50,319 nt of DNA, taken from positions 95,517-145,835 of the forward strand of contig MQRK01247877.1 of NCBI GenBank assembly GCA_001938485.1, written 5' to 3'. Shown here in pieces: positions 6,939 to 50,319 of this stretch; within the stretch, counting starts at the first letter, position 1, and every line of letters starts with the position of its first letter. The stretch comes from Girardia tigrina. Taxonomy: Eukaryota. The notes beneath the pieces were generated by a model. The model made no database searches. It saw nothing but the letters and a program-made list of their open reading frames with translations, and was not told the DNA's origin. The position numbers and the translations under genes are program-made.

Positions 6939-8673
6939 GTAGGTTTTTATAATTTATTTATATGAATGTATGAGATTAAATATAAATTAATAATACATAA
7001 TAATGATGTCAAGGTGCTACAAGTAGTCAACTCCTGGCCCGGCGAGCTGTTTCCGGAAATAATAATAATATGGGCGCATCGATTACGAATTCAGACAGCG
7101 ACGATGACGATGATTTATCCGATTTTACATTCAATGAGGTGATTTTTATTAATAAATAAATAATATGAATTATTTCAATAATAATAATATTAAAATTTAT
7201 AATAAAATTTATTCATTATTATAAATTTCATTCATTCATTAAATTTAGTGTTTTTAAATATGGAATTTTATAAACAAAAGTTTGATATAAAAATAAAGAA
7301 TAATAATAGTTTTTATTTGTTATCAAGTTGTAAATTTATTTCATTTTCAAATATATTTTTCCTAACTGAAATGAAATAATAAAAGCGCAAAAATTTAAAC
7401 AAATTTAAAAAATATAAAGGTTTATTTTTGACATTTGGTATATATTTTCAACAAAAATTTTGTTAATTCTTGATATATTTATGGGAACTTTTTGATGTTT
7501 ATTTACTTCTTCTTCGCATATTTAAGGTTATTTGACACTCATATTTAATAATAAAATATCGATTTAGTAAAAGCGTAAATAAACTATCGCCAAAAAATTC
7601 AAGGCATTTAAATAACAGTTCAGAAAATTTAATAGAAACCAAAGTGTTTTTATCAAAATATTTGCAACATTTTTCTTGATTGAATTTAAAGGAGATTCTG
7701 TTTTTGTAAAGTTTTAAATTTAAGAAACCAAATTTTGGAAATTTGTAATTTGAAAGGGTTTATAGTATAAACCGCGTATATTATAATTTATATTACAATA
7801 ATTGAACTAGTTAATCAAGGATAAACTGTTTATCCTTTGCACAATCACCTTGCCCGGATCGTCATGTTTCTAAAATGCTAAGTGTAGTTCTCAGCTTTGC
7901 ATTTTATGAACATGACGATCCTGGCTAGGTGATTGTGCAAAGGATAAACAGTTTATCCTCGATTAACTAGTTCGATTATTAAACATTTTAATCTGATAAA
8001 GATTAAAAAAAAGCGATTAAAAAAAGAGGATAAAAGCCCATTTTTTACTTTAAAATAAAATTTAACAAATTTTCCCACAGATTTTAACATTTTTTATTTA
8101 TTGTTTGCATTTAATGTTTTATCTATTAATTTGTGTCTATTATTTGTCGTGTGTTTTTGTGTATTTGTAAATATCTATTTGTTTAGGTACTTATTTTAGT
8201 TAGTTAAATGGAATATCGTTCATTTAACTAATAAAAAGAATGTTTTTGTGATTTTATTTCCGATGATGTTTAATTTTGAAAATACGACTTTTTTTCAGAA
8301 AAATGTATTTAAAAATTACTATTACATTGCAAGATTGAAAATATTTTCTACAAATATTTTCGGACCATCTTGGTTTATATGATAATAAAATAGGAAGATG
8401 GTCGAGTGTTCGTTTAAATTTGAGCAAATAAACGGTCATAAAAGGTTTAGTTAAGAAAATATAGTAAGCATTAAATCTTATAATATTATAATCTTAAAAA
8501 ATATACAGGAAGATCGGGTACTCTTAAAAGTTTCTTAGTTTTCTGAGACATTTATCCATTTACTACCTTCATGTATTCTATCGCTTTAAAAAAATAAAAT
8601 TAAGGTATAAATTAAAGTACAAGTACTATTTTTATATTTTATCCGTACTGAAAATTCCTATGATTTCATATTA

Positions 8674-10869: not shown

Positions 10870-13800
10870 AGTGTAATTTGGTATGCTATTCCACATCAAA
10901 TTTGGAATGTATGGTAGTAGTATGTAGATAAATTGAGTTCGTTTTCAAATTATTTAATGTTAAGCGTTCACTTCGAGGATTGAGTTTTGATGTGCTTCAA
11001 TCTGGAAGGATTATTAATAGCAATGACTGGGTAACAATAGTCCGTATCGCCGATGTGGTTACTCTGAACGAACATTAACATATATAGGTACTAGAATATC
11101 AAGGATTTACACCAATATGAGCGTGTTCATTAGCATCTGTTATTAAATATTTGTTAACTGTTCAGAAATTGTTTTATTAAAATTCTTAATATTAAAATAT
11201 ATATTAAAATAATTACAGATCCATTAAAGTATGAATTAATATGTTATCTTAATTATCATCACATTTAAATATCTAAATTATCTCTAAATTTATAATTCTA
11301 TCGTTATTAATATTGTTTGATTTTACTTATTAAATTGATGGAAACTTATTTTGTTATAATTAAGACAGAGAATTTAACATTTTTATTAGATGATAATTAA
11401 AATAAATAAATAAAAATATTTTACTTTTAGACTGCTTTATATTTTCTATTATGTATTTTAATTATCATGGGTTATACTATCTGATCAGCATTGATTCACG
11501 TGGGAACAACTTTGCGTTTGTTTCTAATCTATGAATCATACAATAATCAAGACTGTTGAATTCGAATATAGGATAGATATACCGGATCATATATTTAAAA
11601 TTCACCAAATTTAGATCTTGGAATTTAAAATCCTACCGCATCCCAATCTACATAAAACTTTTTTTCAATAAAAATAAAAATTGATTTGTAAAAAAATGAG
11701 TCTTTCTGTATTTTTAGGCAAGATTCAGCAACAATGACCTGACAAAGTCTTTACAGTAATATGAAATAGTATTTAGTAAATACACTCTCAGATAGAACGC
11801 TAATTGCTAGACAGATTGATAAATTTAATTTTCTAATTTTAAAACCTTAGATTCTTTTCTATTCTCTATACTATCTCAATCACAATCTTCTAATTTAGGG
11901 CAAAAATAAAACATTTCTTGAATTTAAATTCTTTTTGGGATATTATTGTTCAGTTTAGAAAAACAACAATTTTTAAGTGTAGGCCCAAAAAGGTCGTTAA
12001 AGAACAAGAAAAGTGAATCTCATCATTTCTCAATATTTTATTACTGGAATAGAGTAATTTCGTTTTATAGAAATTAATTCTGAATCACAATCTTCTTTTT
12101 CCATACTTCATATAATCTTGTTTTTGGTTCCATGAAAAAATAGCAAAGGAAAAAAACAACACAAGAAAAAACAGCACAACCAAAACAGCACATTAAAAAA
12201 CAGCATAGTGAAAAAACAGCACAATTAATTTTTTTACTAAATTATATAACATTCTTCTTGTCAATTAAAGGGTCATTTAAAAATCTATAATAAATATATT
12301 GTCGCAATATATTTCGGTGGATTTTCCACCATCTTCAGGCTGAATTAACAACAATTTTGCGTAATTTCATATGTCCAGGACATATCTCGCATCATTGATT
12401 GCCTTTCCAAACACTGAAGTCAAAGGAGGCTACTTTCATCTTTGTCAAAGCCTCATCAGAAAAATCAACACTGCTGGCTTGAAAATCGAGTTTGAGTCTG
12501 ATATTGAAGTCAAGTTGATGCTAAAATCGTTGTCTGCCTTGGCATTTGTGCCAATGCAAGAAGTGAGAGCTGTGTTCGATACTCTTGCTGTCACATTTCC
12601 AGATGAGGAAAGCTACAATGATATTCTCACCTACTTCTTTTTTACTTACGTTGAGGGTGCAGCAGGACGAGAGCCACAACTTCCCATCAGTATCTGGAAT
12701 CACTATTAAGCTGCTGTTGAACAATCACCAAAGACAACAAACTGCTGTGAAGGCTTCCACAATTCGCTTAATGCCATCTTCCACTGCAGTCATCCAAGTG
12801 TCTGGTCTCTCTTTTCTGGTCTTCAGATTGGCATGGCTAACATATTGATAAAAGCACAGGATGGTCAACCAGAGGTCATGAAGAAGAAGTATCAGCTACT
12901 TCATCAACAGGTTGCTGCTGCAGCTCTAGGATACCAAGCTGAAGAAGACAAGTTGAAGTATTTGCGAAGGATGGCTAATTTGCAGTGAGTAACATGTCAA
13001 AATACAATACAAAATTCGTGAATAAATGCTAGTTATATTAATTGTGCTGTTTTTTCACTATGCTGTTTTTTAATGTGCTGTTTTGGTTGGGCTGTTTTTT
13101 CTTGTGTTGTTTTTTCCTTTGCTGTTTCATCCGGTTACCCTTGTTTTCTATATATGTATCCATAAAATTTAGAAATCTTTTTTGGTTTTTTACTGAATCA
13201 ATTTTCTTCAAACTTTGAATATTTATTCATTCTTGATGACAATAAATGATTATGCGAAATTTTGATCAAACTAGTAAATCAAAAAATATTTTTTTTCAAA
13301 TAAAGTTTTACGATTATCCACAAATGTTTAATATGTAATACATAAAAATGTTTTGGTTTTTTTTCTTCGACACTTTATATAATAAATTTATTATGTTATT
13401 AGTAACTATTTAATTGGAGTTTTAAAAATTTTTGGTATGAAATTTTCCCTTCAACCAAAGATTTAAATAGTTACTAATAATGTAAATAATTTATTAAGAA
13501 GTGTAATAGTAATTTTCCCTTCTACAAAATATTTTGTTGGTCAAGTAGAGTTCTGACTGCATAAAGAATGGATATAAAAATTTTTTGATTTACTGACTTA
13601 GAGTAAATCTACAATAATATTATATTTTTATATAATGAAAATTTTAATGTTTATTGTTTAGATTGAATATTTATTTCTAAACTTTCGTTTATTTTTGAAA
13701 AAATCAATATGAAGTTGTTTGTGAGAATATGAAATACAAAGATGAGGAGATCAGGAAAATGATATAATTAAAATTTATAGTTAAAGAAAATGTCTTCTAA

Positions 13801-16800: not shown

Positions 16801-19800
16801 TCAATCAATTTTCAATATCTCCCATTATAATCTGAACTAACTTGATNNNNNNNNNNNNNNNNNNNNNNNNNNNNNNNNNNNNNNNNNNNNNNNNNNNNNN
16901 NNNNNNNNNNNNNNNNNNNNNNNNNNNNNNNNNNNNNNNNNNNNNNNNNNNNNNNNNNNNNNNNNNNNNNNNNNNNNNNNTAATAAAAACTAAAAATTTG
17001 AATATTAAATCTAAATTTAAATAAATTAGTTTCAGATTATAAAAAATTAAATATTGATAATCCATCTGGTTAGGAGAGGCACAATCCAAAATCAACATAA
17101 TTCATAAACATACACACACCAAATATTCCTCACAGTCATTCTCTACAACAATTTATTTATAACAACAATAAAATACACAGGTGTAAATACGATTATGATA
17201 TAGTGCTAAAATAAGGATAATAATCCGAGACAATCGATTAATAATGTCAAACACTCAAATGCAACAACACAATAATTACAACTATATAATTTACCAAATC
17301 AAAATTACTGTGAATAGACTCACAAAATTTAGAATACAATAATCAATCGACGAATCACAATAAATTCACCCGTTTCAATTTTCACACACCAAATAAAAAA
17401 ATTCGATATTTAAACAAAAATTAAAAAATCCATTATTTACTAAATTCATATTTTATAAATTCTTTTGAGGAACTTTCCTAAACTTGTTAATGATAAACTG
17501 AACTTGATTTTTTTATTATTTTATAAATTTTTATTTACTTTAATTTATTACTTAATTTTTTCCAGATATTCTTTACTAGTTAATTAATTCAAAAATTTAT
17601 AATGCTCAACGTAACCCTAACAGAAATCAAATTCAAATTTAAAATATTTAAGTATCATTCTAAGTAATAATTTAATGTAATTCATAAAAGTAAAATTTAT
17701 ATTAGTAAAAAAGGGAATTTAAATGTAAAAAACCCTGAATAAATGAATAAATATAAAAAATAAATAAAAAAATTTAATAAGAAATTTAAAAAATAATGGT
17801 AAAATTTTATAATTAAGAACGCCATTAAAATCAAATTTGTGATTTAATCAATAATGCCTCACAAGTAAATCTTTTCTATTTTAAAAAAACCTGTCGAAAA
17901 AAGAAATTAATGTTTGTAAATTTGATAAAGGTAATGGTTTAGTTGTTTTGGATAAATCTGATTATCTTAATAAGATTCATGAAGTGTTAGAAGGTCCACA
18001 ATTCAAAAAATTAGATAATTTTCGAAAAAATGGGAAACTTCCACCATTGAAAGATGAGGAATGTCTACGTTCTCTTTTGAAAAAACTTTGTAAAAACGGT
18101 CACATGGATAAGAAGTTAGAAAAACTTTTATGTCCTACTGGTTCCCAGCCTGCTAAACTTTATGGTCTTCCTAAGGTACATAAGGATGGGATTCCAATGA
18201 GACCTGTTTTATCCATGATTCAAACATCTCAATACTGTATTGNAAAATTTTTGGATTCGAAATTAAAACGTTTGATTTCCTCTGAGTTCCAGTGTAAGGA
18301 TAGCTTTGAATTTGTTGAATTTATTTCTAACTTTGATTTGGGTAATGAAAATGAATTCATGGTTTCTTTTGACATTGGAAGTCTTTTCACCAATGTCCCA
18401 TTGATGGAAACAATTGATCTATGTTGTGATCTCTGGAAATGTAATAGTGGTAAGCATGATAGTCTTGATGAGTTTGCTTTTCGTGAATTACTTACTTTTG
18501 CAACATCAAATGTTCATTTTTTGTTTAATGATAATTGGTTTAAACAGGTAGATGGTGTTGCCATGGGTTCCCCTTTGGCACCAACACTTGGATCCATTTT
18601 TCTGTCTAATATTGAAAATAAAATTCACTTGTTCATGGGTGTTAGACCTTTAGCTTATAAGCGATATGTTGATGATATTTTTCTTGTTTTCAAAGAGCGT
18701 GAAAATATGTTGCCGTTTTTAGCTTATATGAATTCCCTTCATTCTAATATTATTTTCACGGTTGAGCTTGAGAAGAATGGTGTTTTACCATTTTTAGATT
18801 TGTTAATCGAGAGAAAAGGGAGTCATTACGAGACAGAGATTTATAGAAAGAAAACAGATACAGGTTTATATAATACTACTAAAAGCTTCTGTGAACCTAA
18901 GTACAATAGAAGTATGATAAAGGGTTTGTTATTTAGGTATTGGTCTCTATCATCAACATATGAAAAAGCAGATGCAAGCATAGATAAACTAACAGAACTA
19001 TTGCAGAAAAATGGCTATTCGAAATCATTTTTAGAGAAATTAACTAATGAGACGATAGATAAATTAATGAATAAAGAACATGAGGATAAAGACGAATTAA
19101 AACCCGATAAATTATCTAATGAAAATTTTAATATTGGATATACGCTAATCGTTCCTTATTCAGAGGGTTACAAAAAATTGAAATCGTCTATTTTAAAATC
19201 AATCGATAGAAAAAATTTGAATTTAAAAATCAGTTCTAAATCTTACTAAATTCAAAGTATATTCAGCAATAAATCTCATACTCCTTTGAGTTTATGTTCC
19301 AATCTGGTTTATGAATTTTCGTGTAATGGATGCAACGCTACATACATTGGAGAGACGTCTCGTCCTCTCTGTAAACGGATTCAGGAGCATGGACGATTGG
19401 GTAGTGGGAGTAATATTGCTGGACATATGAAGGGTTGTAAGTCGGAGGTGAAAACAACTAATTTTAAAATATTGTGCAGTAATTTTAAAAATTATTGAGA
19501 AAGAGTTACTTGAGGCATTATTGATTAAATCATTTAATCCGTCCATTAATGTACAAACAAGTCTCTCTTCCAATTTGTTGAAAATATTTAATTAGTTATT
19601 ACGCAAGATGTTTGCATAATCATCAATTTGTTATATATAAGACAGCGAAATTGTTGTTAATTCAGCCTGAAGATTGTGGAAAATCCACCGAAATATATTG
19701 CAATAAAATTTGATTTTAATGGCGTTCTTAATTAAAAAAAAATTTATTTTTTTTAGATTCTAATGTTTCCTTTTATTGAGGTTTATTCTAAACTTAGTTA

Positions 19801-26202: not shown

Positions 26203-29200
26203 ACAAGTGTTAAAGCAACAATTTTTCAGCGATTGTCATTCAATAAATATAACAAAAAATATATCATCTTTAGGCAAGGAGATGGATATGTAAATAAATA
26301 TGACGATAGATGATTTAAATTCTGAAATACATAACATATAAATTCCAGTAGAAAATATAGAAAATGATTTTGAAAATTACAGACTAAAAAAGGTCCTTTT
26401 TGTTTTTAACCTTAGCTAAATGGGAGTAGATAATCCTGCTCTAATTTTATTTTTATAAAATCTGTTATTTATAATGTCAATTAAATTAAAATAAATTTAT
26501 TATCTATTTACATATTTAACAGGCTACAGTGAAGAAGCTTATAGATCATCTATTCGAGAATCATAGTATTGTGGATAACACTTTTACAGAAGACTTTTTT
26601 CTCACTTATAACATATATCTGGACTCTACTGTTTTGGTTCGCAATGTTATCATAGAACAAATACGGGAATATCCAGAGAAAAGAAAAAAGTGCACAGATA
26701 TCGTTGTAAAATGGATTAAAAACCACTTTCAAGAAATTGAAAACCAGTGTGAAATAATGAAATTTATCGATTTAATTGTTATGCTTCTGCTTCGAGAAAA
26801 CGAGGAAGGTAATCTTTTTACATGTTTTTTATTTTTCTGAAACTTATCATTATATTTCTTCTATCATATATTATACAAAATAATCACTTATCGACATTTA
26901 AACTGTTATAACGATTTTAATAAAAGCAGTCGTCTAACTCAAATATTTACTATTAAAATTCCAAATATTTTAGTCTTCAAATGACTTCTTAAAATCTCTT
27001 TGATGATGTGGCACTGACTTTGTTTTTGATTATATATTTACCCAATCACTTAACTATTTGTCTGAAATGTCATTGTTAGTGTTGATCAGCGGCTTTTAGC
27101 AAAATTCACTCGTCAAAGTGTAGCATGAGTATAGTAATCTTATACAATCTTATATGATTGTGTTTTGGATAACATAATCCAAATAATTACAGTTGGGGAC
27201 GACTATTTTACTTGAATCTAAAAGTATATATTTTTCTTATTTGATAACAAAATATCAATACGCAGACCTTGAGAAGAAATTTATACTGGATACGGATGCA
27301 AGTTTCGATACAATCGGAGCAGTGTTATCACAGAAGGACGCGTTTGGAAGAGAGAGAATGATTGCATATGGATTACATAAAATGAACAAACATTGGCTTG
27401 GATATTGTGTTAAGAGGAAAGAGCTGCTTACAATTTATTGTTTTACGCAAAATTTTACACATCTTCTACGATACAAGATTTTTACTGAGAACTGATCGCA
27501 AATCAAATAACACCACAATTCTAAACATTGATAAATTTTGTTAGTGGTCTGGATATGAGAATGGAATATCGAAAAAGCGGAAAACACTGTAATGCAGATG
27601 CAATGTCTAGAAATTCTTGTGAATTATGTTGTCAGTGTCAAACAATGCAAGAAGAAGCTAAGAAAGGGAAAAATTGAAAAAAAGAATATTGGCTTTAGAT
27701 GAAGAATCAAAGAGTTCATATGGTAGAAAGATAATGACGAAATAAATCATATTAGAAAAAATATTTTAATCGGAAGAACACATAAATGGATACTGAAAGA
27801 CGATATTGTGACAACAATGGATAGTAAATATTGAATTCTGTTAACCACAAGGACAGGTTCGTTTAAATTCGTTTAAGATGTGCACAAGATGATTTGCCAT
27901 GCTGCAGTAAAAAGTTTTATAACTATTAGATAGATGATTTCGATATGGTCAATATGAGAGAGATAATAAAGGATATTGTAAAATGTTTCATAAACTGTCA
28001 AAAGAAATACTGTAAAAAATCGAATTCAGGAAAGAAGTTACGAATTGAAGTTAGTAGAACTTAGAATTTTAATTAAGAATGTAGAATGGCTGAAGACATT
28101 TAAATCGATTGGGATGTAAGGAATGCTTTGTGTTTGAATGTTGTATGTTGATTAAAGATTATGTGCCTCCTACTCAGATGGATGATTAATATTTTAATTC
28201 TTATATTCTGAAACTAATTTTATTCAAATTTTAAATTTAATGCTTGAATTTACCTTTAATTAATGAAAATTGTAAATTTTAAATGATTTTATTTATTTTA
28301 TTTTTAAAATTTTAAATTAATAAAGTAAATTAATATTTATAAATAATTTAAAAACAATGTCATGTTTCTTGTAAAAGTAAAAAGTCGCCATTTTAGAAAC
28401 CAATTTTATTTTTATTGACAATTAATTTCGACAGTATAACCTTCATCTTTAGATCATCAAGAAAATAGGAATTTAAATGTGTGTAAGTAATTAGGTTATC
28501 TTAACCCACTGAATAAGGTTGTCGAGACACCCGTTTGTGCATTAATAATTTTAAATAATAATTATTCAATTTAATTTTAACCAATAAAATTTGCAATAAA
28601 TATTTTTTTATAAAATATGTAAGTTCAAGTTAGTTAAAATTTTTAGATAAAGATTATTAAATTTTTCCTCGATGAATATGAGTGAAAGCACTACTAAGGA
28701 TTATAACAAAGATGATCCAAATTGTAATTGTAATAAATGTTTTAATCAATACGTGAGTTCTCTTAACAACAATAATTATCAGAAGACAAATACTAAACAG
28801 TTGGTTTCAAAAATTCTAGTTTTAAATAAGTATGCTGAATACAATTAACGGTAGTCTGCAGAATTATCAATTTATTAAACATGCTTCTTATTGATGTTGT
28901 GAGCTAATCAGTTAAAAATTGTTTAGCAGTATCACTGTTAGTTCCTCTAATTTTCGGGCGACCACGGTGAGGCTTATCCAGAATCGATCATCTTTTTTAA
29001 AGTTTCCATGTCTTATCTTTTCTTAGAACTTTCGCGAGGTTCAAATATTTTATTTCTCACAAAGCCGTTTTCTTATTTCGGACATGGTATGACCTGACTG
29101 TTTACCATTGGAATACCATACAGATGCCAAAATATATAGCTATTGAAGAATCACGGATCTCAGTCATAATAAAAACTAAAACAAAATATTGCTAGTTGAG

Positions 29201-35200: not shown

Positions 35201-38200
35201 ACAGTAAAAAATTCATCCAGTGTTGTTTGAGTGAGTGAAGTTTGTAATAGTCGCCCAATTGACTCTTCTAATTTATAAAATATTGAATAGTCATTCACGG
35301 AGCCACCACGTAGCTCGAGCGTTCTCAAAATTTGTAATGCGTTATTCACTTCTTTTGATGAAGGTAGACGTAATGGCATGTCTTCTGTGCCTTTATCAAA
35401 ATCACTGTCCTCTTCATAAAATACCCTTTGTTTATGGTTTTGAATTTCTTTGGCAATATCAGCATCAGTGACCGTCAGCATTTTCACCGTCATCAATTAG
35501 TGAAATAATTCTGCGTCGTAGGCAACTCCTATAGTGAGCTTTCGTAGAATGAATAATACCATGGTCTAAAGGCTACATTATCGATGTTGTATTGGAGGGT
35601 AAGAATTGTAGTTGAATATTAGTGAGATGGACGCCTTCTGGATGTGCTGTACAGTTATTCAGTAAAAGCAAAATTTTTCGCTTTTTCGGCGATTTTCTAC
35701 ATCCCACTCTTGAAACATTTATGTACAGATGACACTGGTCATCCAAGCATTTTATTGCTTTTGTAGCCAACAGGTAAATTCTTCACTTCTCTGAGGCAAC
35801 GAGGATTTGCGCTTTTTCCGATTACTAGAGGGCATCTTTTCTCTGATCCATCCATGTTACATATGAAAAGGACAGTAAGACGATCTTTAGACTTTTTACC
35901 TCCAGCAACGTTATCTTTGTGGAATGTCAAGGTGCTGTCTGGCATAGCACGATAATATAAACCACTCTCATCAGTGTTAAAAATATCTGCAGGAGAATAT
36001 TCCGTCAGCAGAGGAGGCAACACTTCGGACAACCAGCTATACGCACGGGGCATATCAACATCTTGTTTTTCACCATGTAATTTCTTATAGACAATATTGT
36101 TACGCACCTTCCATCTTGTCAACCAACCATCTGTTGAGTTGAAATCAATAACACCAAGGGACTCGGCCAAAGAACGAACTTTGTCACACAGAATATCACG
36201 AGTAATTGGTGCATTTTTATCTCTTGCTCGTGTAAACCAAATTAACAGTGCTTCTTCAACATCAGATGCTTTACCTTCTCTCTTCCGTTTTCGACTGACA
36301 TTTTGGTGGCCATAATTCATTTCTTTTAATTCATCCCGAGACTTCAATAACTTGCAAAGAAGAGGCTGAGAGATTCCTAACTTGGCTCCTGCTTCTCTTT
36401 GACTGACAGAACCACAAGAATCATACTGTTCCAGAAGTTCCAATTTTTCAGTTACAGAAAGATTTTTCTTTTACGAATAGAAACGGCGCTTTGAGTTGAA
36501 TTTTTTTTCAAATTCATCGGAACTGGTTCATTAAATTGATTCATAGTTAGAATTAGTTAACTTACCAAAATCAGCCGTTTTTTTAGAACTAAAACCAGGC
36601 AAAAAACTAGAATTTTCACAAATAGATTTATAATTAAATTTAGACATTTGTAAATTTTGTATTTGAAAGGTTGAATTAAAATAATTGTGAATATTTAAAC
36701 ATGAATTACACGAATTTTATTAAATTATTACATTAATTTATTACATTATGTATTAAAATACTCAGTATGATTAATTTGAGTTAATTCAGCACAGTAGACA
36801 AAAATAGACAAAAACTCCGTGATCATATTAGATGGCGGCTCGATCAGATTAAGCGGCGTAAAATGCACAGAAATTGGTGATTAGGTTTTGGTTTTTTTAA
36901 GATTGATCACATTAAACGGCTGATAACAATAACCAGTAATAATATAAAGCTGCGCCCACTATATATATATATATATATATAGTGACACTCAAAAGTGATG
37001 GAACACGCTATATTTTTTGTTTAAACGTTAATATCGAAAACATACTTTTTTCAAGCCCAAAGTTTCTATAACCTATTTGAACAACAACTCATACCAAATA
37101 CATAATAAATACAGCTGCATATAGTTAGGTTGTATAATATTGTAGTTGTATAATTTATTTACATGAACTCCCCATATCTTTATGTATCTGTTAATAAATA
37201 TATATACTTTTTTTTACATTAAGAGGCTTAAATAAACGCAATCCCTTATAAATAATTCTTTCAAATACCACAGGTATAAAATTTATAGTCTTATTTCCGA
37301 ATTGAATAAATTTAGGATGAAAATTTTCGAACATTATACTATCAAATAGGTATTCAGGAGACTATATTTAAAAACATTCTAACAACATATTGATTTAGAA
37401 TAAATGTAAATAATGTAACAGTCGTACTGATGAGCCTATAAAAATTAAAATAAAGTTAAAATATCTAAAGCAATTCTGAGAAAACAATGTATAGAGCTCG
37501 AATTAAAAGAAGAGATTACATATTTTATAAATGTGTAATCTCTTCTTTTAATTCGAGCTCTATACATTGTTTTCTCAGAATTGCTTTAGATAATTTAACT
37601 TTATTTTAATTTTTATAGGCTCATCAGTACGACTCATACATTTAGATGATAAAATTCTTAAACATTAATTAAATTTAGAAACAAAAATTATTCTAGATTT
37701 AATGGTTACTCAATTTGACAAATATCAAGGTTACCGTGATCCTTCGCTATTTAATATTCGATTAAATAATAAAAATGAATCATGAATCTTATAAAATCTA
37801 CGATGAAAATGTAATAATAAAAAGAATCGATAGTCTATTATGGATATTAAAATTAAAAAAACTATATTGTTAGTTTCGTTTATGTCATTTTCATTATCAG
37901 TAATGTTACAATTCATATTCAACACAAAATGTATTACAAAAACAAACAGATTTTCAAAGAATTTCTTGTTAAATTAATTTTTAATTTCGCCAAATCTTTA
38001 ATAATTTCGTTTAATTGATTATGCTAGTTTTTATCCAAATTTTAATTTTATTAATTTAATTTATTTTATTCTGTAACATTTTTTAAAAATTTTTATTTAA
38101 TCCAACTTTTTATTATTAAAATTTATCTACCTAATATATTCTAATTAAAAATAAAATTATTAAATTTAATTTACACTAAACTATAATTTTTTTTCAAATT

Positions 38201-41200: not shown

Positions 41201-44200
41201 AACACTACCTCTAAAACCTAAACTTGGAGGGACAGGACCCCCAAGTCAGGATAGAATGAAGAAAATAATGTCTAATAGTGTTAATCAAAGTTCAACATCA
41301 AGTGCATTAAAGAAAATGATGAAAAGATGTAAAGCTAATAGCAGGTAAAACTCTAAGTGGAAAATATATTTAGTTGATTGAATTTATTAAAAACTAGTTT
41401 TACTGATGAAAAAAAATTGAAAAATAAATCTAAAAGTCGGAGTGCACATAATTCCCCTGATCGATGCCAAGTATCAAATCCAGATTTAGCATTTAATGAT
41501 ACATTTTCCAATGTTAAAGTTAATTCCGAAATTATGTCAACAAGTTTCACTTCAACCAGCAATACCAATTTAAAGGTAGAAGCACCGACAGTGAGGATGC
41601 GCAAAATGAGATCCAGATGCGACAGTCAACCCGATCTCAGAAAAATGGTGAGATTTTAAATAGAATTATAAAACTCAAACACCATAATATTTACAAAACT
41701 CTCATACAATCTTAAATGATGTAATTTGAAAGCTTTTTATAGTAACTGTCATTTTAAAGTTTGCTTCCCTATTTCCTCGTTACACATTTGTGTTATTATA
41801 TGAGTAAATTTTGCAAAAATGGCTTTTTTAATAGTTTTAAATGTTATAACTTTGTATTTATTTTTATGTTAATTTACTTTTATTTTATATAAAGTAACAA
41901 ATTTCTTTTATTCTTTCTTAATATTATGATACCAGCAGGTAATGATGGATTGTTCCACGCCTTTATGAAAGAGCAGAATGATTCAAAAAATATTGTATAG
42001 AAATACGGGAATATTTTTTTAAAGGAATAATACATCTTGCAAATTTTTTTATTGACAATTAATGTTGAGGGTCATACCGTTATCATCTTTGTCATCAAGT
42101 ATGAATATACCTTTTAAATCTGCAATCAAATAATCTTTGAATAATTGTATTCTTAAGACAAGTAGGGTCGTTGAGCATTAATTTTGCGGTCAAAAGATCT
42201 AATAGATAGCGCATCAAAGAATTATCAAAATGAATAAATCGAATTTTGAAATTACATATTTGAGTTGGATATCTTTCGAACATGAAAAATTTAAAATGTG
42301 TTTGGTAATTAATATCTGACCCCACTTAGATTATTTTCAAAACTCGTATATCATGGTAGTTAGGGAAGCATCTTGCATTTTCTGTTACAATAGAATCATA
42401 GAAGACAGTCTCAATATTAGTGAAAATACTTTTGCTGGATATCGAAGGATTGGTTTCGTTTTGATTTTTTAATTATACCTTTTAAATCTGCAATCAAATA
42501 ATCTATTCGTAATTATTATATGTTTTATAATACAATTTTTTTAATACAATTATATAAAACACACTGTATTCATACATATGAATATTTTTGAATGGTGTTT
42601 ATTGTATGTTGTTTGGTATGTTGTTTTAGGATTGTATTTCTCCCATCCAGATGGAAGATTGATATTTTAAATATTTTAAAACGTCGGGTTATTTAATCAA
42701 TAATTAGAATTTAAATAATCACTTTAAAATTAAACTAATATTTCATAAATAATATTTCTAGTGACTCAAACTTGAAGTTAAAGTTTACACAAAAATCCTT
42801 GACCGAATTTTGGATTGGAACTAGAACTGAATTTCCCTCAATTTCTGAAATGGCATTAAATATTCTTTTGCCATTTAACACCACATATTTATGTGAAACA
42901 ACTTTTTCTGCTTTGATGCATATCAAAACGAATTATCGTTCACAACTGAAAAACGCTGAAGAAGCCTTACGCCCAGCCGTATCAAATATAGTTCCCGTTT
43001 TGATTTGTTATGCAGCAAAAAGCAAGCTCATCCATCCCATTGAAAGATTTTTTCGTTTTAAAATATTGTAATAGTTTGTTTTATAATAAATTATGCTTTA
43101 TGATGATTAATTAATAATTACTACTTATTATCTTTGTATTAAAATGTTGTAAAAGTTTATTTTATAATAACTTAGGTTTCATATTAATTAATAGTAATAA
43201 CATAAATGGCATCACAAAATTATGACCTTAAATTTTTATATTTAACATCTGGGGTCGCGAAAAAATTGTGGATCATAAATTGGGTCGCAACGGAAAAAAA
43301 AATTAAGAACCTCTGATTTAGAGTATAAATTATTTTTGTAGTAATTAAATTATAATTTAAAGTATAAATTATTTTTGTGATAATTAAATTATAGTATAAA
43401 GTATAAATTCTTTTTGTAATAATTAAATTATAATTTAAATTTGTTTTAATAATAAAACGTTAAAGAATATTAGAAAAGATAACGTTTATTAAACGAAATA
43501 CAATTTGTTATCAGTTCTCATTTCAAAGAAAACTAGGTAACATTTATTATTATTGTTATCATATTGTTTTCTTTAGCCTGACAAATTGTCGTTTTATCAG
43601 TGATCAAAGAATTTCAACTCTTCGTTTTATCCGTCTCTTATAGAGTTACTAGGAAAAGACCTGTCATGTATGACAGGGGAGTTAAATTTTCGTCTTTGAA
43701 AGTTTCTGTTTTAATTTATAAATCACAGTTATAATTTTTATTTATTGTTTCGAATTGGGTGTTTAATTTTTCAATTTTTTAAAATTTAATTTCTTTTAAT
43801 TCAATTTTTTATAATAATTAAAAAGAAACTATAAGAATAATATAGTAATAATAATACAAATAATAAGCGATAATAACTCGATAGCTTCAGGGAAAGTGGG
43901 TTAAAATTGCAAGAAAAACAGTTTAAACATTTGTAGATAATCTAGTAAATGATGTCATAAAACGATGGAAATAAAACGTAATGAAATCGTAAAACTATTT
44001 TTGCCAAAAATTTTTTTAAATTTAAATTTAAATCATAGTTCTTTTATAAAGATAATAAATTAATTTTCCAAAATAATATTTTACATTCTTATTAAAAACA
44101 TTTGTAATATTCAATTAACAAAGTACAATTAAAAAAATAATTAAATTTGTTTTACTGAACTCCGGGAACTTCACACAGAATGACAGACAGAAATCATAAT

Positions 44201-45356
44201 TCTATTATATTATTAATTGATACATAATATATTATTGTATTTTTATAAAAATAACAGTGTTATTTATCCAAATTTACATTAGAGTTATTAAGAACACCAA
44301 CATGGGTTTTCGAACTTTTGTTTTCAATGTAATTAGAACTGTCTTTTGGACAACTCTCAGCAAAGCTTTCGTAATTCGACATCGTTCTAAATTGATATAT
44401 TTTAGTTAATGTTTTTTTAATAAACAATTATTCGAACAAATTTTTCATTATTTTTAGATTTTATTTTTAAAGTTCAAATTTTGTAATTTTAATAATAATT
44501 CTATCTACATATTAATTTTATTTAAAAAATATTTTATGTAAAGAAAGAACATTTATTTAATTTAAAACTTAGTTAAAGATATTTACTTTATTTAAATTTT
44601 TAGTATTTAAAACGATTTAATATTTTTAAAGTTCTTAAATATCTTATGCTGTACTTTAAAATGCAAATTATACTCGAATAATTATTTATCATGAACATCC
44701 AAAATATCAATTTTCCATCTGGGTGGGAGAAACACATTTTCAAATACTAAACTCAACATACAATTTCAACATACAAAATTTAAAATATTCCTCACAAGAG
44801 TGTTGGTAACGTCAATTGATCGAGTTTTCCTAGCACTTTGGCTACATTATTTATTCCAAAGATATTTTGATGTGGAACAGTTGGATAATACATATAATAA
44901 TATTTGAATATTTTGAATTAGAATTAATAGAACAATTCTTTGTTATTTCTATAATTTAATTTTTACAATTACAATAATATAAACATAATTTTTTATAAAA
45001 GTACAATTTTAAAAAAAATAAATTTCACTATTACAATATTAATTACTTTTATTTGTTTTTATGTAGAATTCTTATAACAGTGGAGAAACAGTGAAAAGTT
45101 CTGGTGAGTCTGTGATCAAAATTTTTTACAGGGATTCCAGTGACACGGGAATTTCTGGAAAATCTAATGTAAAATGTACATACTTGATTATTAATAAAGA
45201 AACGGAAGCATTAGAAGTGATAGTAAAAAGTGTTTGCGAGTTAAATTTATCATGCGCATCAAATTCGGAATTTTGCCTATGTGAAGTATCTGTGGAACCA
45301 GGCTCAATTGTGAAACAGAAAGCAATAAAAGAGAACACAAATAATTTATTAGAAAA
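6821..45356 (+). CDS. RAPGEF2: PDZ-domain Rap guanine nucleotide exchange factor (RAPGEF2/RAPGEF6-like), multi-exon, partial; exons 6821-6938, 7014-7138, 14282-14383, 23539-23799, 23870-24061, 26523-26808, 34454-34828, 41086-41344, 41398-41647, 45067-45356
   Basis: Manual splicing gives one open frame with GT-AG junctions and matching phases (1,0,0,0,0,1,1,2,0). The domain order cNMP-like, REM, PDZ, RA is diagnostic of PDZ-GEFs. Start codon uncertain; CDC25 domain not found in window. Confidence 0.9.
7014..7138 (+). CDS. RAPGEF2: PDZ-GEF exon: acidic segment ...ITNSDSDDDDDLSDFTFNE
   Basis: Phase 1 to 0; matches the DSEDDDDEED acidic stretch that precedes the cNMP domain in RAPGEF2; gag|gtgatt donor. 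Confidence 0.75.
7797..7980. repeat. Fold-back (palindromic MITE-like) element, about 86-bp arms, about 12-nt spacer
   Basis: aataattgaactagttaatcaaggataaactgtttatcc... pairs with ...ggataaacagtttatcctcgattaactagttcgattatt without indels. Confidence 0.85.
8680..8808. repeat. (TA)n microsatellite spanning an assembly gap (8731-8780)
   Basis: Directly visible; other (TA)n tracts at about 10823-10865, 26169-26199, 36960-36981 and 50296-50319. Confidence 0.95.
10117..10437. mobile_element. Composite non-autonomous element: inverted arrays of tgaaattgaactt-like repeats around a MULE-like terminus (ggattaagtgtcc repeats ending ccccgtacc)
   Basis: 10117-10150 is the reverse complement of about 10405-10437; tandem repeats at 10213-10290. 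Confidence 0.55.
12140..13140 (+). mobile_element. Internally deleted MULE/Mutator element with about 90-bp repeat-built TIRs and a C-terminal transposase remnant (12390-12988)
   Basis: TIRs 12140-12228 and 13037-13140 (aaaaaacagca repeats); G.YFHLCQSL.RK and KTTNCCEGFHN motifs of MULE transposases, with an in-frame stop at 12707-12709. Confidence 0.85.
12304..12340 (-). ncRNA. Minimal type I hammerhead ribozyme in a short Penelope pLTR fragment (family 1)
   Basis: Minus strand reads gc-CTGAAGA-t-ggtgga-aaa-tccacc-GAAA-tatatt-gc; homologous to 19648-19701. Confidence 0.72.
14282..14383 (+). CDS. RAPGEF2: PDZ-GEF exon: ISCQDHIKDILQKPPEDRSNQENETIMNVIQNIP
   Basis: tttcag acceptor, gtgagt donor; aligns by eye to RAPGEF2 [31 protein letters not shown]. 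Confidence 0.88.
14710..15290 (-). mobile_element. 3' LTR (family A) of a Gypsy remnant; contains a gap
   Basis: Preceded on the minus strand by the PPT gaaggggga (15291-15299); termini TATGAG...CTCACA; homologous to 40290-40953 and 24154-24924. Confidence 0.75.
15521..16510 (-). pseudogene. Ty3/Gypsy integrase remnant with in-frame deletion of the catalytic core
   Basis: H-H-C-C zinc finger (IHRDLCHVG...CQEC), first catalytic D (VVMDI), STTGYSPFEVVFG, GPY module. Confidence 0.88.
16705..17134 (-). mobile_element. Solo LTR (family B) with gap, nested in another LTR-like repeat starting at 16572
   Basis: Minus-strand TGTGAGGAATATT...TTCTCTTAACA; flanks atcat/gtcat (4/5 TSD). Confidence 0.65.
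17900..19595 (+). pseudogene. Penelope RT/GIY-YIG ORF with in-frame stops at 19247-19249 and 19496-19498 and a late frameshift
   Basis: ORFs 17948-19249 and 19286-19498 are in the same frame; the EALLIK..NPSINVQ terminus is in another frame. Confidence 0.9.
19665..19701 (+). ncRNA. Minimal type I hammerhead ribozyme motif in PLE pLTR (family 1; stem II basal pair mismatched)
   Basis: gc-CTGAAGA-t-tgtgga-aaa-tccacc-GAAA-tatatt-gc; PLE pLTRs are known to carry minimal hammerheads. Confidence 0.7.
22019..23371 (+). mobile_element. Full-length Tc1/mariner-superfamily DD41D (rosa-type) transposon, 1353 bp
   Basis: 30-bp TIRs cagggtgagtcagaagtcac(a/t)gggcagtca with 1 mismatch, TA TSD; WSDEA, QQDGAPPH, SPDLTPPD with 41-residue D-D spacing. 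Confidence 0.95.
22218..23284 (+). CDS. DD41D transposase; single frameshift in the A7 run at 22271-22277
   Basis: ATG at 22218; from 22277 the -1 frame is open through the GRP motif into ORF 22598-23284. Confidence 0.8.
23539..23799 (+). CDS. RAPGEF2: PDZ-GEF exon: cNMP-binding-like domain, N-terminal part (LFSLWTQSLRYAACKLAKLEVVEK...SFGADLRKSEPQ)
   Basis: ORF 23584-23817 extended to the ag acceptor; W..LQGTLEV and SFG motifs of the CNB fold. Confidence 0.88.
23870..24061 (+). CDS. RAPGEF2: PDZ-GEF exon: end of cNMP-like domain and linker (VSKVFLVTTSNDCWLMLI...KGPVLVK)
   Basis: 70-nt intron upstream; gtaagg donor; resembles RAPGEF2 ..DDCQFVCI..VMVKEHR..KGHIVIK. Confidence 0.9.
24154..24924 (+). 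mobile_element. Solo LTR (family A-related) with 5-bp TSD ATTAT
   Basis: attat|TATGAG...gttgcaaccacttCTCGCA|attat; 3' end matches the reverse complement of 14710-14780. Confidence 0.7.
25099..25322. mobile_element. Small piggyBac-like MITE, degenerate
   Basis: Ends cccttaacgcg / cgcgttaatggg; internal acccgagt..actcgggt hairpins; TTAA TSD not intact. Confidence 0.45.
26523..26808 (+). CDS. RAPGEF2: PDZ-GEF exon: REM (RasGEF_N) domain
   Basis: ATVKKLIDHLFENHSIVDNTFTEDFFLTY...KWIKNHFQE matches the REM consensus (HSVVDPTFIEDFLLTY...WVNNHFND); aacag acceptor, gtaatc donor. Confidence 0.93.
27245..28114 (+). pseudogene. Gypsy pol remnant (RNase H, integrase zinc finger) ending at a PPT-like tract
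   Basis: FILDTDASFDTIGAVLSQKD...Y....KELL; NADAMSR; decayed H-H-C-C; gggaTGT junction. Confidence 0.85.
28115..28768 (+). mobile_element. 3' LTR (family B) interrupted by a PLE pLTR fragment (about 28350-28548)
   Basis: TGTAAGGAAT...TTCTCTTAACA; similar to 16705-17134 and 48292-48400; insert similar to 48610-48815. Confidence 0.65.
28417..28455 (-). ncRNA. Degenerate hammerhead motif (family 2), probably inactive
   Basis: Minus strand CTAAAGA-t-gaagg-ttata-ctgtc-GAAA-ttaatt-gtc: core G5 changed to A and stem II weakened relative to 48669-48715. Confidence 0.55.
34454..34828 (+). CDS. RAPGEF2: PDZ-GEF exon: divergent PDZ domain (frame not shown in ORF track)
   Basis: 375-nt phase 1-1 open frame DCAGKIYHTCSKYSTPRSVTII...LYISQIKNCLDLRPGDRIIQINN...LTILNVKYDPE; LRPGDRIIQIN is a PDZ signature. 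Confidence 0.88.
34997..36961 (-). mobile_element. Tigger/pogo-like DNA transposon with disrupted transposase (about 36470-35188)
   Basis: Ends cagtgggtgccgctttat / ataaagctgcgcccact in TA runs; CENP-B-type HTH (GWLTRWKVRNNI), IFNTDESGLYY, KDRLTV, FLPSNTTS. Confidence 0.92.
37420..37634. repeat. Near-perfect 215-bp palindrome (106-bp arms, 3-nt loop)
   Basis: Centre at 37527; no indels; two substitutions seen between arms. Confidence 0.95.
38230..38720 (+). pseudogene. Highly decayed mariner transposase fragment
   Basis: Remnants of DEKW-region, W..E..P, and SDL/DYYLF-like motifs across frameshifts. Confidence 0.45.
40290..40953 (+). mobile_element. Solo LTR (family A), 3' end degenerate
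   Basis: Starts TATGAGAGGTTAATTTAAATT; colinear with the reverse complement of 15290-14740. Confidence 0.7.
41086..41344 (+). CDS. RAPGEF2: PDZ-GEF exon: linker (GFYSPFLVNYLKTKVKPRS...KANS)
   Basis: Phase 1 to 2, continues the frame of the PDZ exon; cag|gtaaaa donor. Confidence 0.75.
41398..41647 (+). CDS. RAPGEF2: PDZ-GEF exon: Ser-rich linker ending RCDSQPDLRKM
   Basis: 53-nt intron upstream, phase 2 to 0; SQPDL resembles the SNPDL motif found before the RA domain of PDZ-GEFs; gtgaga donor. Confidence 0.78.
42745..43315 (+). mobile_element. hAT/Charlie 3' fragment: dimerisation domain plus terminus
   Basis: EFW....EFPSISEMALNILLPFNTTYLCETTFS...IKTNYRSQL; ggggtcgc subterminal motifs and aagaacctctg end. 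Confidence 0.85.
43322..43438 (+). repeat. 39-bp tandem repeat, 3 copies
   Basis: agtataaattatttttgtagtaattaaattataatttaa-like units at 43322, 43361 and 43400. Confidence 0.9.
44286..44796 (-). mobile_element. Solo LTR (family B), 511 bp, perfect 5-bp TSD AGAGT
   Basis: agagt|tattaagaac...aatattcctcaca|agagt; inverted homologue at 48292-49785. Confidence 0.85.
45067..45356 (+). CDS. RAPGEF2: PDZ-GEF exon: Ras-association (RA) domain
   Basis: VIKIF...YLIINKETEALEV...FCLCEVSVEPGSIVKQK matches RAPGEF2 RA (YIMISKDTTAKEV...YSLCEVSVTPEGVIKQR); gtaagc donor. Confidence 0.93.
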
Positions 45357-45404
45357 GTAAGCTCTGAATTAAATAAGTCACTAAACCATTATAAATAATG
45401 TTAA

Positions 45405-46620
45405 TATATTTATCGAGGACTGCCGGATGGAAATCTTCTGCACCTGCTTCCATTTGGGGCTCCTCCATACTCTCTGGTTTTTACATGGTTTGTATGGAGT
45501 CCATGGGTACTTCCTCCTCTCATCCTCGATCCGGTTAAATCTTCGGATCCCTGGGAATCTTTCATATCTAGGAAATGACCATTGCGTCGAAAAATATTTG
45601 ACATTGGATATCGAGCACGCTATCGCAATATTTCTAATAGTCTTTGGTGGGATCTTTAGACTTGTTTTAGACTTGTACTGCGCTTTGGCGTAGTTCCGAT
45701 ACACCCTACCTGGAGTGTGTGGAGCAGTACAGTTGTATTCGGCATGCCCCTTCTACAAGCAATAGCCAAGGACTAGTCGTGATCCAAGTTCTTGGTATTG
45801 CTGTTTTCCATATTTTTCTGTGTGTCATATTGACACTTGACATCTATGAAATACAGAATGTTTTGCCCTGGGAGCATTATTTGCTGGTCTACCCGTTGTT
45901 GTGACGGAACATATGCAGACATAGCATCTATATGTATTTCACAATCTAAGTGCTGTGTTATTTGTTCTGCCAAAAAGTATAAGACCGCATTATGTTGGTA
46001 CTTTCTAAACTCAGCACTCGGTCAAAAGATATAGCACAGTCTCATTATTTTGTGGAAATCTTCTACAGTGTCCACCATTAGTACGAATATCACGTCGGTA
46101 GTTGACGGGCACTGTATATGTCATTGCCTTCTGAGAAAAAGTACCATTCAGTATAATTAAGTCCTCCTCCATATACTGCATCGTGAAAACTAACCACGGA
46201 GATTAGACTTCTCGCAAATCTCCTGGTACTACTCTGCTTTAGATTTTTGTGTGTTCATGACTTTTCCCATAACCTTCTACGTGTCCTGGACACACTTTTG
46301 TTGAGCATCGGCATGAGCAGTAAGTTTTCATCGATGTTGTCCCTTATTATTTCTGTTTCTCGATTTGCTAGTCGTCCTTCCGAGACTAGACTCTGATGTA
46401 TATGTATACAAATGCGTGTTCGTTCTGCACCAATTCTATTTTGATTTGGTGCAGTTGTAAAATTTTGTGTATTACAACCTTTATTTTCCTCCACCGGTTT
46501 TTAATTTTACCTGATTGTGTTCCTCTATTGAGTCAACTGATTGCTGTCTCAATAGAGATAATGTCAGCTTTCTTCTTTCCACTGACTTCTCTTTGAAGCA
46601 AAAATAAAGCGACATCTGTT
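45405..46620 (-). mobile_element. 3' remnant of a non-LTR retrotransposon with restriction-like endonuclease (R2/NeSL/R4-type group)
   Basis: Decayed CCHC knuckle (CRR...ETV..LLTEC), QHNAV (RHN), QRVD...FIDVKC.YD (PD..D-type nuclease motif), followed by a GC-richer 3' UTR. Confidence 0.72.
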
Positions 46621-46999
46621 GTCACTTCATCACTGCATGTAATCATTTGGAAGCAGTGAGAAAGTGACTGAATCAGTATTCATCCAATATAGATTTTAGT
46701 TTCTCCAAATTCTAGTCTTTCGATCCAATTTAAATATAAATAAATATCTGTTTTCAAAACAGTTAATTTTGTCTTTTAATAAATTAGTTTGTATTGACGA
46801 TTGACAATCTGTTAATTTTGTCACCGTTCTTTTGTTTGGGTAATTTAGCGATGTTACTAGGGTGTTCAATATTTTTCTATTTTTGTGCGTTATATTGATA
46901 TTAAAAGATGAGGTTATATTTATATCATGAAATAATAACAAATTTTGTTAAAATTATTTATTTATTTGACAAAGTATAATTGATCATGATCAATGGTTT

Positions 47000-47700
47000 T
47001 TCTTCATATTTTTACAAGCTGTTCTATTCCATGGTGATAACAGGTCTGATCCTTGGAAGCAAAGAATAATCTGCATTCCATTTCATCGTCATCATGTATT
47101 CCAAAGTTACGATCAAGCAAAAAGTGAACCATTGAGTGAAAAAAATAAAAATCTGACAAATCAAGTCTTGGACTATAAAGGGGTTAGGGTAACAGTAAAA
47201 ATTCCAGGTCATAGTTTTATTGTTTTGTTAAAGCTGCAATATATGAAGAAACATTATCCCACTTAAATGACACTCATTTGACTATTCTTGAATATTGTTG
47301 CCTCATAACATCCTACACACGTTCTACTTGTACAGGCTCCATACCTATGAAATTCCACCAAACACAAAACACGATCTTGTGTTCGAATAACCCACTTTTG
47401 AAAAGAAGATATAGCTAGTAGATCAGGATCTAACCATTGATTTTGCATATTTGGATCATGAAAATAGATCCATTTTTCGTCTTGGGGATTCGCAAGCAAC
47501 AAGTTTGGAGAGATCAAGACGCCATTGTGCTTGCTCAGGAATGAATTAATGAGGAACCCCAGACAACATCGGTTAATTCTATCAATTTCATGGTACTTGT
47601 GGTGGTTAGTTTAATTTGAATTATCCAACTCTTCTGATAGTACAACCAACTTATCATTCTGAAACGGGATTTTTCATTTGAAAAGAGGTGACATTATTTG
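47000..47700 (-). pseudogene. Decayed mariner transposase
   Basis: DEKWIYF...QWLDP and YSPRLDLSDFYFF (YSPDLAPSD-like) on the minus strand. Confidence 0.75.
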
Positions 47701-48603
47701 AAAAGTGAAAGAATCTAAACAATGTATGAATTGATAAATGTCAGCAATAAATTAAAATGTATAATAACCGTCTAACAAAACTCTCCTTAATATGCCCCAC
47801 TGGATATCCTTTATTTGTCTACTTTACAGTGTTACATCTCGTATTTCTTCAGTTGAACTGTAGTAATTGGCAGAACCCAAATAGGAAATGTAGAAATCAC
47901 ATTTTTGGACAAAAATAATTCTAATTTTCACTTACATTTGTTGGCAAAATAAATAATGTCAATTCTATATTATGAAATATTATATTATTTTTTGCAAGTT
48001 TTACCAAATCATCAAAATTTATTTTTATACAAATTGATTACCTTAATCGACATTATACAATATTTTAGAATAATTAAATTCAATTTGTATTTGGTGATCA
48101 AGTTCAATATAAAATACTAATTGAATAAAATGATACTTACTATGATATATATCAGTTTATTTGACTGACTTATTACAAATTAACTTCTATGTTAGTATGA
48201 GTAGACTGGCTTACTCTTATCAAAATAAGTGGTACCCACACCTCTGCCTTCCATCCCAAATAGAATATTCAAAATTTACAACAATAATGACTGTGAGGAA
48301 TATTTTAAATTTAGTTTGTTGAATTTTGTATGTTGAGTTTAGTATTTGGAAATGTGTTTCTCCCACCAAGATGGAAAATTTATATTTTGGGTGTTCACGA
48401 TGAATAATTATTCAAGTATAATTTGCATTTTAAAGTACGGCATAAGATATTTAAAAAATTTTAAAAATATCAAATCGTTTCATAATTTTAATATTAAAAA
48501 TTTAAATAAAGTAAATAGCTTTTAACTATGTTTTAACTTATATAAATGTTCTTTCTTTAAAGAAAATCATTTTTTAAATAAAATTAATATGTAGATAAAA
48601 TTA

Positions 48604-49561
48604 AAAAATGATGGCAACTTATTTTTAAAGACAAAAATACGCCATTTATTAAATAAACATTTATTTTTTTAAGACAATTAATTTCGACGGTATAACCGTC
48701 ATCGTCAGGTCTCAAGAAAAAAATGAATTTTAAATCTGCTTATATAGGCAAGCAGTGATTATGTCATCTAAACACGCTCAATAGGGTTTCCGAGAGACCC
48801 ATTTGCACATTAATCTTAGAATCTAAAGATCTGATATAAAGTACTTCACAGGTCACCCTCTCCCAATAGTTTTTAAAACGAGAACACAGAATTTTAAAAT
48901 CATTTATGTTTATTTTTTCATTCGACTTATAACCCTTTCTGTGTTCTGCAATATTACTCCCACCTACATTCCTACTATGTTCTTGAATTTTCCTACAAAG
49001 ATGACGGGACGTCTCTCCAATGTATGTGGCATTACACCCATTACATGTAAATTTATATACGAGATCCGAACATAATCCACATGGGGTTGGAGATTTATTA
49101 CAAAATACATTTTGGATTTTATATGTTTGTGATATTATTTTAAATTAAAGGCATTATTTACGCATTTTAAAATTGAACGCTTAAATTGACCTAATCCTTC
49201 TGAATATAGAATGCTTAAAACGTATTCTAAAGTTGTTGATTCTTCCTTATCATTTTTAATCGGTTTATTAATTAATTTATCAATTGTTTCTTTGGTCAAT
49301 TTCTCAACGATCGATTTTCAATAACCATTTTTATTCCATAATTTAGTTAATTGGTTAATGCTATCACAATTTTTTGTATAAGTTGATGATAATGACCAAG
49401 ATCGAAAAATTAGTCCTCTAATCATATTACATTTGTATCGAGATACACAAAAACTGTTTGGCGTTGTATATAGCCCAGTATCAGTTTTCTTTCTGTAAAT
49501 CTCAGTTTCATGAACATCTCTTTTCCTTTTTACCTTCGAAATTAATTGTTTTAAAATATAA
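48604..49561 (-). mobile_element. 5'-truncated Penelope-like element (family 2) with 15-bp TSD and inverted tail
   Basis: HETEIYRKKTDTGLY...RSWSLSSTY..NGY; GIY-YIG VYKFTCNGCNATYIGETSRHL; TSD atgtagataaaatta at 48589-48603 and 49562-49576. Confidence 0.92.
48669..48715 (-). ncRNA. Minimal type I hammerhead ribozyme (family 2), intact
   Basis: Minus strand ttgagac-CTGACGA-t-gacgg-ttata-ccgtc-GAAA-ttaatt-gtcttaa: 7-bp stem I, 5-bp stem II, palindromic stem III, AUU triplet. Confidence 0.85.
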
Positions 49562-50319
49562 ATGTAGATAAAATTATTACTAAAATTACAAAATTTGAAC
49601 TTTAAAAATAAAATCTGAAAATAATGAAACATTTGTTCGAATAATTGTTTATTAAAAAACATTAACTAAAAATTATCAATTTAGAACGATGTCGAATGAC
49701 GAGAGTTTCGCTGAGAGTTGTCCAAAAGACAATTCTAATTGTATTGAAAATAAAAGTTCGAAAACCCATGTTGGTGTTCTTAATAATGAACATTGAAGAA
49801 ACACACTTAAAAAGTCTTTTTATATAAATATGTACTCATATTCTAATAAAGATTGTCATATGACATGAAAAAATTTGTTTAAATGTGACAAAATCACGCA
49901 ACATAATATAAAGCGAAAAGAACTGTGGAAATATCATAAATCACAAATATTGTTTCTCATCACGAATTTAATGGTATTTTCTCGCTCAAAATCATTTAAT
50001 TGTTTCTTTAAACTAATTCAATATTGTTATTTATTTTCTAAGTCTTGACTTTCTTACTCGGAAATTTGATATTTTTTCTTCGTCTTATTCCAATTAATAT
50101 CCAAGTGATGATATGTTTATTATGACTTCAAGTCATTTATTATAGGAAATAACTTTTTTGAATTTTCGATCTAATAAGATTTACAAAATTTTTGTTTTAT
50201 ATTCTTTATGTTTTAATACGTGTCGTCTTTTTTTAATCGTATCAACAGTTCTGCAATTTAGTAATCTCTTATTCCATTCTTTTTATTAGCTTACTTTATA
50301 TATATATATATATATATAT

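Follow-up and report, generated by a model that had tools for sequence, protein, structure and literature searches.

Minimal hammerhead ribozyme motifs, mostly relics, in the pLTRs of two Penelope-like families of Girardia tigrina

The window analysed, a stretch of 50,319 nucleotides of the Girardia tigrina contig MQRK01247877.1, contains real copies of the minimal hammerhead ribozyme (min-HHR), which occur above the chance level, are mostly relics and are ordinary for their class. The motifs are very probably min-HHRs located in the 3' pLTRs of two Penelope/Poseidon-type families, here named A and B, whose structure was once under selection and is now decaying in dead intronic copies; if active, they would cut weakly after AUU, as dimers or with the assistance of a protein. 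The four motifs of an earlier note, made from the sequence alone, were found at the coordinates first given there, and a fifth copy, absent from that note, is added.

48669..48715, minus strand: family B minimal type I hammerhead, intact, predicted cut 48676/48675
28417..28455, minus strand: family B hammerhead, decayed (G5A in the core, stem II mismatch), in a pLTR fragment of family B
12304..12340, minus strand: family A hammerhead, core and stem II intact, in a solo pLTR fragment of ~100 bp (about 12260-12360)
19665..19701, plus strand: family A hammerhead 72 nt past the ORF stop, core intact, G10.1 changed to U
about 42046..42100, minus strand: family B-like hammerhead relic, heavily decayed (model R1, 13 bits, E 0.5)

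Read on the minus strand from 48715 to 48669, the first of these is composed of stem I, CUGACGA, U, stem II, GAAA, UUAAUU and stem I', in which a 7-bp stem I (one G.U) and the core CUGACGA are followed by an extra U, a 6-bp stem II with a 3-nt loop, GAAA, the palindromic AUUAAU and U17. C3 is at 48708 and U17 at 48676, and the predicted cut had been placed rightly between 48676 and 48675. In family A, stem I has only 2 bp; the 19665 motif combines it with the palindromic AUAUAU and U17. Stem III is thus palindromic in both families, as had been proposed. The five motifs that were aligned include a further one, L001, from a metagenome contig; all five carry the extra unpaired U between A9 and 10.1, a stem III palindrome (AUUAAU or AUAUAU) and U17, and the type I order CUGANGA...GAAA...NUH is present in 48669, 12304, 19665 and L001 and absent from 28417.

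The CUGANGA layout attributed to all four window motifs holds for 48669, 12304 and 19665 but not for 28417, which reads CUAAAGA (G5A) and whose stem II contains one A.G mismatch and one G.U; the G5A change abolishes hammerhead catalysis. The G10.1-C11.1 pair is G-C in three of the five aligned motifs and G.U in L001, while in 19665 the conserved pair is replaced by a U10.1.C11.1 mismatch. Among the four listed copies, only 48669 and 12304 have both core and stem II intact, and in 12304 GAAA and stem III can be drawn by the 3' neighbouring sequence into a predicted local 10-bp hairpin, leaving 48669 as the sole copy free of core, G10.1 or competing-hairpin defects. The term "functional" is therefore not supported at the level of the copies, two of the four having core or G10.1 defects, 12304 being prone to the predicted hairpin, and all being solitary, kilobases apart and part of dead elements. 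The statement that stem II changes completely between families also had to be corrected: in both it is composed of 6 bp and a 3-nt loop (GACGGU/ACCGUC and GGUGGA/UCCACC), with three pairs the same, three compensatory and 6 of 12 positions identical.

The strict pattern core-spacer-CGAAATWWATT has two exact matches in the window vs none in 100 shuffles. A generic type I descriptor with exact core gives a mean of 0.04 matches per shuffle (max 1, 100 shuffles); with one core mismatch allowed it yields five matches vs a mean of 1.78 per shuffle, namely all four motifs and one unrelated-looking match at 12459, and in this loose form is by itself weak evidence. The Rfam hammerhead covariance models had no match at E up to 10, either in the whole window or in 48600-48800. 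A weak match to the hammerhead model R1 with a broken core (29415-29465, plus strand, 20 bits, E 0.004) is possibly a very old relic or chance.

The earlier assignment to minimal type I hammerheads in the pLTRs of two Penelope-like families agrees with the position of the motifs at ORF ends and with the pLTR fragments. The remnants of the Penelope-like elements (PLEs) that carry them are as follows.

17885..19594, plus strand: family A PLE ORF, 5'-truncated, with RT (Pfam RVT_1, E 7e-11) and GIY-YIG (E 0.002, under the curated cut-off)
17805..17874, minus strand: two inverted pieces of the 3' end of element A (copies of 19706-19739 and 19500-19532) at its 5' junction
48764..49533, minus strand: family B PLE ORF, 5'-truncated and broken, with the end of the RT thumb/linker and GIY-YIG, stop 55 nt before hammerhead C3
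48604..49561, minus strand: whole family B insertion of 958 bp within another repeat, with a 15-bp target-site duplication (49576-49562, 48603-48589)
49528..49565, plus strand: inverted pLTR piece at the 5' junction of element B, an 87% copy of 48657-48695 with the 3' half of the hammerhead only
48604..48646, minus strand: 3' tail of element B, with AAAUGGCG within a predicted hairpin (z -2.0)

Element A spans 17885 to about 19740 on the plus strand and its ORF is broken by one stop and one frameshift; the protein P0015, with 95% identity to element A across 43% of the query, clears the GIY-YIG cut-off. Element B matches element A by tblastn in both the RT (E 5e-34) and the endonuclease (E 4e-35), and the two are 67% identical over 756 nt and are therefore regarded as two families. 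Both have a single-ORF layout, RT followed by a C-terminal GIY-YIG, and the hammerhead follows the GIY-YIG stop by 55 nt in B, 72 nt in A and 74 nt in L001. The endonuclease alignment is characterized by CNGC before YIG, two downstream His and no Cys cluster in the linker; in Penelope/Poseidon, CxxC separates GIY from YIG within a CCHH motif and the linker lacks a zinc finger (PMC8557442), and the CxxC endonuclease seen here, also devoid of a linker zinc finger, is consistent with that clade. Inverted pLTR pieces occur at the 5' junctions of both A and B, with the target-site duplication in B, as the Penelopes of Adineta have inverted pLTRs with target duplications (PMC3846280); no direct tandem pLTR arrangement was found in the window. 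Element B ends about 72 nt past the predicted cut, an empty paralogous site of its target repeat is present at 44285-44796, and public contigs contain joints that skip 972-974 nt at the insertion. The 28417 motif belongs to an older pLTR fragment (28321-28546) with 71% identity to element B.

The target of element B is an unclassified multi-copy AT-rich repeat with at least three copies in the window (44285-44796; 48292-48603 plus 49552-49786; 33889-34037). A non-LTR retrozyme, made of short non-coding tandem units that each bear a type I hammerhead, was considered and rejected, the copies here being solitary and joined to pLTR fragments or to coding remnants of PLEs.

Changes between families argue for selection on the structure. 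Metagenome contigs were scanned with the endonuclease alignment, blind to the RNA pattern, giving three loci from 43 candidate stretches, and L001 was the sole full match; its hammerhead combines a family B stem II, a family A stem III, a third stem I (A-U) and the AUU triplet. In the resulting set of five motifs from three families, which holds few independent events and whose structure was read off the same sequences, the covariation first proposed was recovered, with 7 of 12 pairs changing on both sides and pairing kept in 93% of 60 cells. The covariation score is 0.65 vs 0.30 in shuffles (none of 500 as high) and at most 0.15 when partners are slid; the count of doubly changed pairs is reached in 8 of 500 shuffles, and in the same five motifs the further pair types are not above shuffles (286 of 500 as high). 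All 11 core positions are identical between families, and the 45-nt flanks on both sides show a shuffle-level likeness in six of six comparisons (21-169 of 200 shuffles as high).

In viral contigs, 120 loci fit the RNA pattern, seven of them with at least four stem II pairs. Among the 124 loci no PLE protein match was found except in L001; L002-L004, from protein-based scans, are weak short matches, and model R1 gave at most 25 bits on 85 loci other than L001 (82 of the 120 pattern loci and L002-L004). The pattern loci other than L001 are regarded as chance hits to a preselected pattern.

The comparison with published systems places the window motifs within a known class. Cervera and De la Peña (2014) had already described as emergent features a nucleotide between 9 and 10.1, the G10.1-C11.1 pair and a palindromic stem III, with covarying consensus families within each genome (PMC4209133), and the consensus of their Figure S3 reads CUGANGAH G...C GAAAN palindrome NUH (PMC4209133); the extra nucleotide, the palindromic stem III and the covarying families are hence all in the 2014 min-HHR consensus. 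The likeness extends to the type I topology, CUGANGA with the extra nucleotide, G10.1-C11.1, the longer stem II and short stem I; to the palindromic 15.2-16.2 and loop 3, with U-rich 5' and AU-rich 3' flanks; to the position in the 3' pLTR of truncated elements, in several covarying families per genome; and to a copy placed on the opposite strand at a truncated element's 5' end (legend of Fig. S4A), while only the stem sequences and the host genome are different (PMC4209133). The earlier description as lineage-specific variants with an uncommon AUU is not supported: Figure S3 already has the GAAAUAUAUU stem III in identical form, as well as AUU and the extra U (PMC4209133). Counted by hand in 56 rows of that figure extracted from the PDF, with the GAAA column extracted separately, AUU is a minority triplet, as had been said, but not unusual for the class, being carried by 5 of the 56 motifs published there (those of D. 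rhopaloa, D. elegans, D. ficusphila and C. remanei, and Latimeria 1), and U17 is present in 24 of 56; the AUUAAU palindrome of family B is absent from the 56 rows as extracted. The Penelope hammerheads of the three Drosophila species have the same GAAA-UAUAUU and AUU as family A and L001, and likewise a 6-bp stem II and a stem I of 2-3 bp, and differ in the extra C instead of U, a loop II of 6 nt instead of 3 nt and the other stems (PMC4209133).

The Poseidon of Anolis carolinensis (PAc), studied by Frangieh et al. (2024), shares RT with a C-terminal GIY-YIG, a pLTR hammerhead near the start codon, an AT-rich target and insertions whose 3' end has a tail past the hammerhead; in contrast, its ORF starts at stem II, before the cut, whereas here the likely ATG is 5-30 nt after the predicted cut, and PAc was assayed while the window motifs are known from sequence alone (PMC11167929). 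The PLE hammerhead variants of Lünse, Weinberg and Breaker (2017) have a short palindromic stem III, as seen here, and are reported to cleave as dimers, as is predicted here (via PMC6765202). The in vivo role of PLE hammerheads is termed unclear in PMC8557442.

Two short motifs recur on either side of the hammerhead.

TATATA: 19632-19639 (plus strand), about 48746 (minus strand) and about 1878 in L001, shared despite unrelated flanks
AAUGGCG: within 48604-48646 (minus strand), 19718-19740 (plus strand) and 1948-1957 in L001, in three families

TATATA precedes C3 by 33-38 nt in A, B and L001 and is absent from 28417; AAUGGCG is located 5-30 nt past the predicted cut in A, B, L001 and 28417, and in element B it opens the predicted hairpin that ends beside the 3' end of the insertion. 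The former is likely the TATA box of the pLTR, judging from its position, and the latter likely the start codon of a tandem copy; both readings are in line with the TATA-bearing pLTR already described (PMC3846280). From this anatomy, the hammerhead of a tandem element would belong to the 5' leader, downstream of the pLTR promoter and ahead of the start codon.

In an active tandem element the cut after AUU would be weak, with the hammerhead acting as a stem III dimer or aided by the protein of the element. On the basis of published work, the monomer would be inactive, its stem III being limited to 2 bp and a 2-nt loop, while two copies in one tandem transcript could swap strands to form a 6-bp stem III and cleave slowly; published min-HHRs showed no activity as monomers and weak activity as dimers (PMC4209133), and the Anolis Poseidon hammerhead required its protein for cleavage, and insertion in vitro did not depend on this hammerhead (PMC11167929). 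In the computed folds, stem III is formed in none of the monomer MFE structures. The palindromes self-pair, with -2.0/-2.6 kcal/mol for the 8-nt duplex vs -0.2/-0.8 for the active 6-nt form; in RNAcofold the family A dimer has 8 bp paired, A14 and U17 included, and the family B dimer swaps via stem II and not stem III. The active core needs A14 and U17 unpaired. The difference between computed dimers and active form is nevertheless a lead and not a refutation, because energy models miss the core. A contig of an RNA library (X19, 122 nt) covers 48673-48775; such contigs cannot show transcription or RNA ends.

Another reading, which we consider improbable, is one in which the motif is a hammerhead by descent selected mainly for RNA-RNA dimerisation or protein binding, and the duplex of the 8-nt palindrome (A14-U17) blocks catalysis until the protein of the element opens it, or the RNA never cleaves. 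The greater stability of the 8-nt self-duplex, the 8-bp form of the family A cofold and the presence of U17 in all five motifs agree with it, as do the Anolis data, in which hammerhead mutants had no effect on insertion in vitro, cleavage needed protein and RNA-seq revealed no ends at the cut site (PMC11167929). The A14/U17 symmetry, however, is automatic from GAAA and U17, which 24 of 56 published motifs have (PMC4209133); AUU is a cleavable triplet of middle rank, mid-table among NUH triplets and above GUU (PMC8879150); and the 11 catalytic core positions are kept in three families while the flanks drift, which fits selection for catalysis. A more specific proposal, that the palindrome extended by U17 locks two RNAs until their own protein remodels them and that the cut then removes the capped leader, acting as a translation off-switch and not as release of unit-length RNA, is distinctly improbable. 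That the hammerhead likeness is due to chance in AT-rich DNA, or to neutral shared ancestry of repeats, is highly improbable: the missing Rfam match, the 1.78 loose matches per shuffle and the few independent sequences would allow it, but the strict pattern is found in none of 100 shuffles, the motif has a fixed place behind the GIY-YIG gene in all three elements with an ORF end, and compensatory changes amid unrelated flanks are joined by agreement with the published PLE consensus (PMC4209133).

The genomic setting bears on a last possibility, scarcely credible, that the window copies are active ribozymes exapted to act on the pre-mRNA of a host PDZ-RapGEF. Nine segments on the plus strand, from 6812 to 45351, match a RasGEF_N/PDZ/RA/RasGEF protein; the closest protein, P0182, is 46-84% identical per segment and its C-terminal 525 residues are missing from the window, and the PDZ-RapGEF-like gene likely runs beyond the window end. 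Its introns are packed with transposons; the 12304, 19665, 28417 and 42046 motifs fall between the segments that match, and an intronic position is likely for 48669 as well. This position between or behind exons, together with the intactness of 48669, is what speaks for exaptation. Against it, both intact copies (12304, 48669) and both relics (28417, 42046) lie antisense to the host gene; 19665, the single sense copy, is devoid of G10.1; copies are at least 7 kb apart with neighbours on opposite strands or of different families; and the carrier elements are truncated and decayed. Four of five motifs being antisense, with the G10.1 mutant as the sense copy, are numbers too small to call selection. 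The reading as decaying min-HHRs of dead elements is preferred, and the window copies probably do nothing now, as each stands alone at a distance from the others and most are antisense to the gene.

Public DNA runs, which may be the source of the window, have 24,467 and 18,448 contigs on 48450-49700, partly from the flanking repeat; the region is therefore highly repetitive, although this depth is no copy number. No variant falls inside 48669-48715 among the 40 of 146 that were listed, and this is not counted as conservation.

Other repeats were observed in the window. The family A pLTR fragment with the 12304 motif sits inside an element (12146-13120) that is bounded by terminal inverted repeats of 84 bp (96%) and contains a broken transposase-like ORF (12365-12988) without a Pfam match, which we take to resemble Mutator-like transposases. 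Remnants of Tc1/mariner-like (DDE_3, Tc3 HTH), pogo/Tc5-like, hAT and Gypsy-like (integrase zinc finger, RNase H) elements lie at 5101-6314, 22253-23284, 35739-36470, 42739-43071, 15521-16255 and 27187-27495. Two near-perfect palindromes, 37412-37642 (114-nt arms, 96%, 3-nt spacer) and 7797-7980 (86-nt arms, 92%), are possibly MITEs or foldback elements. Broken ORF pieces at 45381-47610 on the minus strand, with no Pfam match for the one piece scanned, are reminiscent of a non-LTR retrotransposon whose C-terminal endonuclease is restriction-like.

Dead intronic fragments do not make the in vivo role of PLE hammerheads more testable. With these motifs, a class already known from 40 animal species gains three families, two from the window and the third from L001, and the TATA-hammerhead-ATG layout is a useful lead, which would matter if cleavage controls translation of the element.
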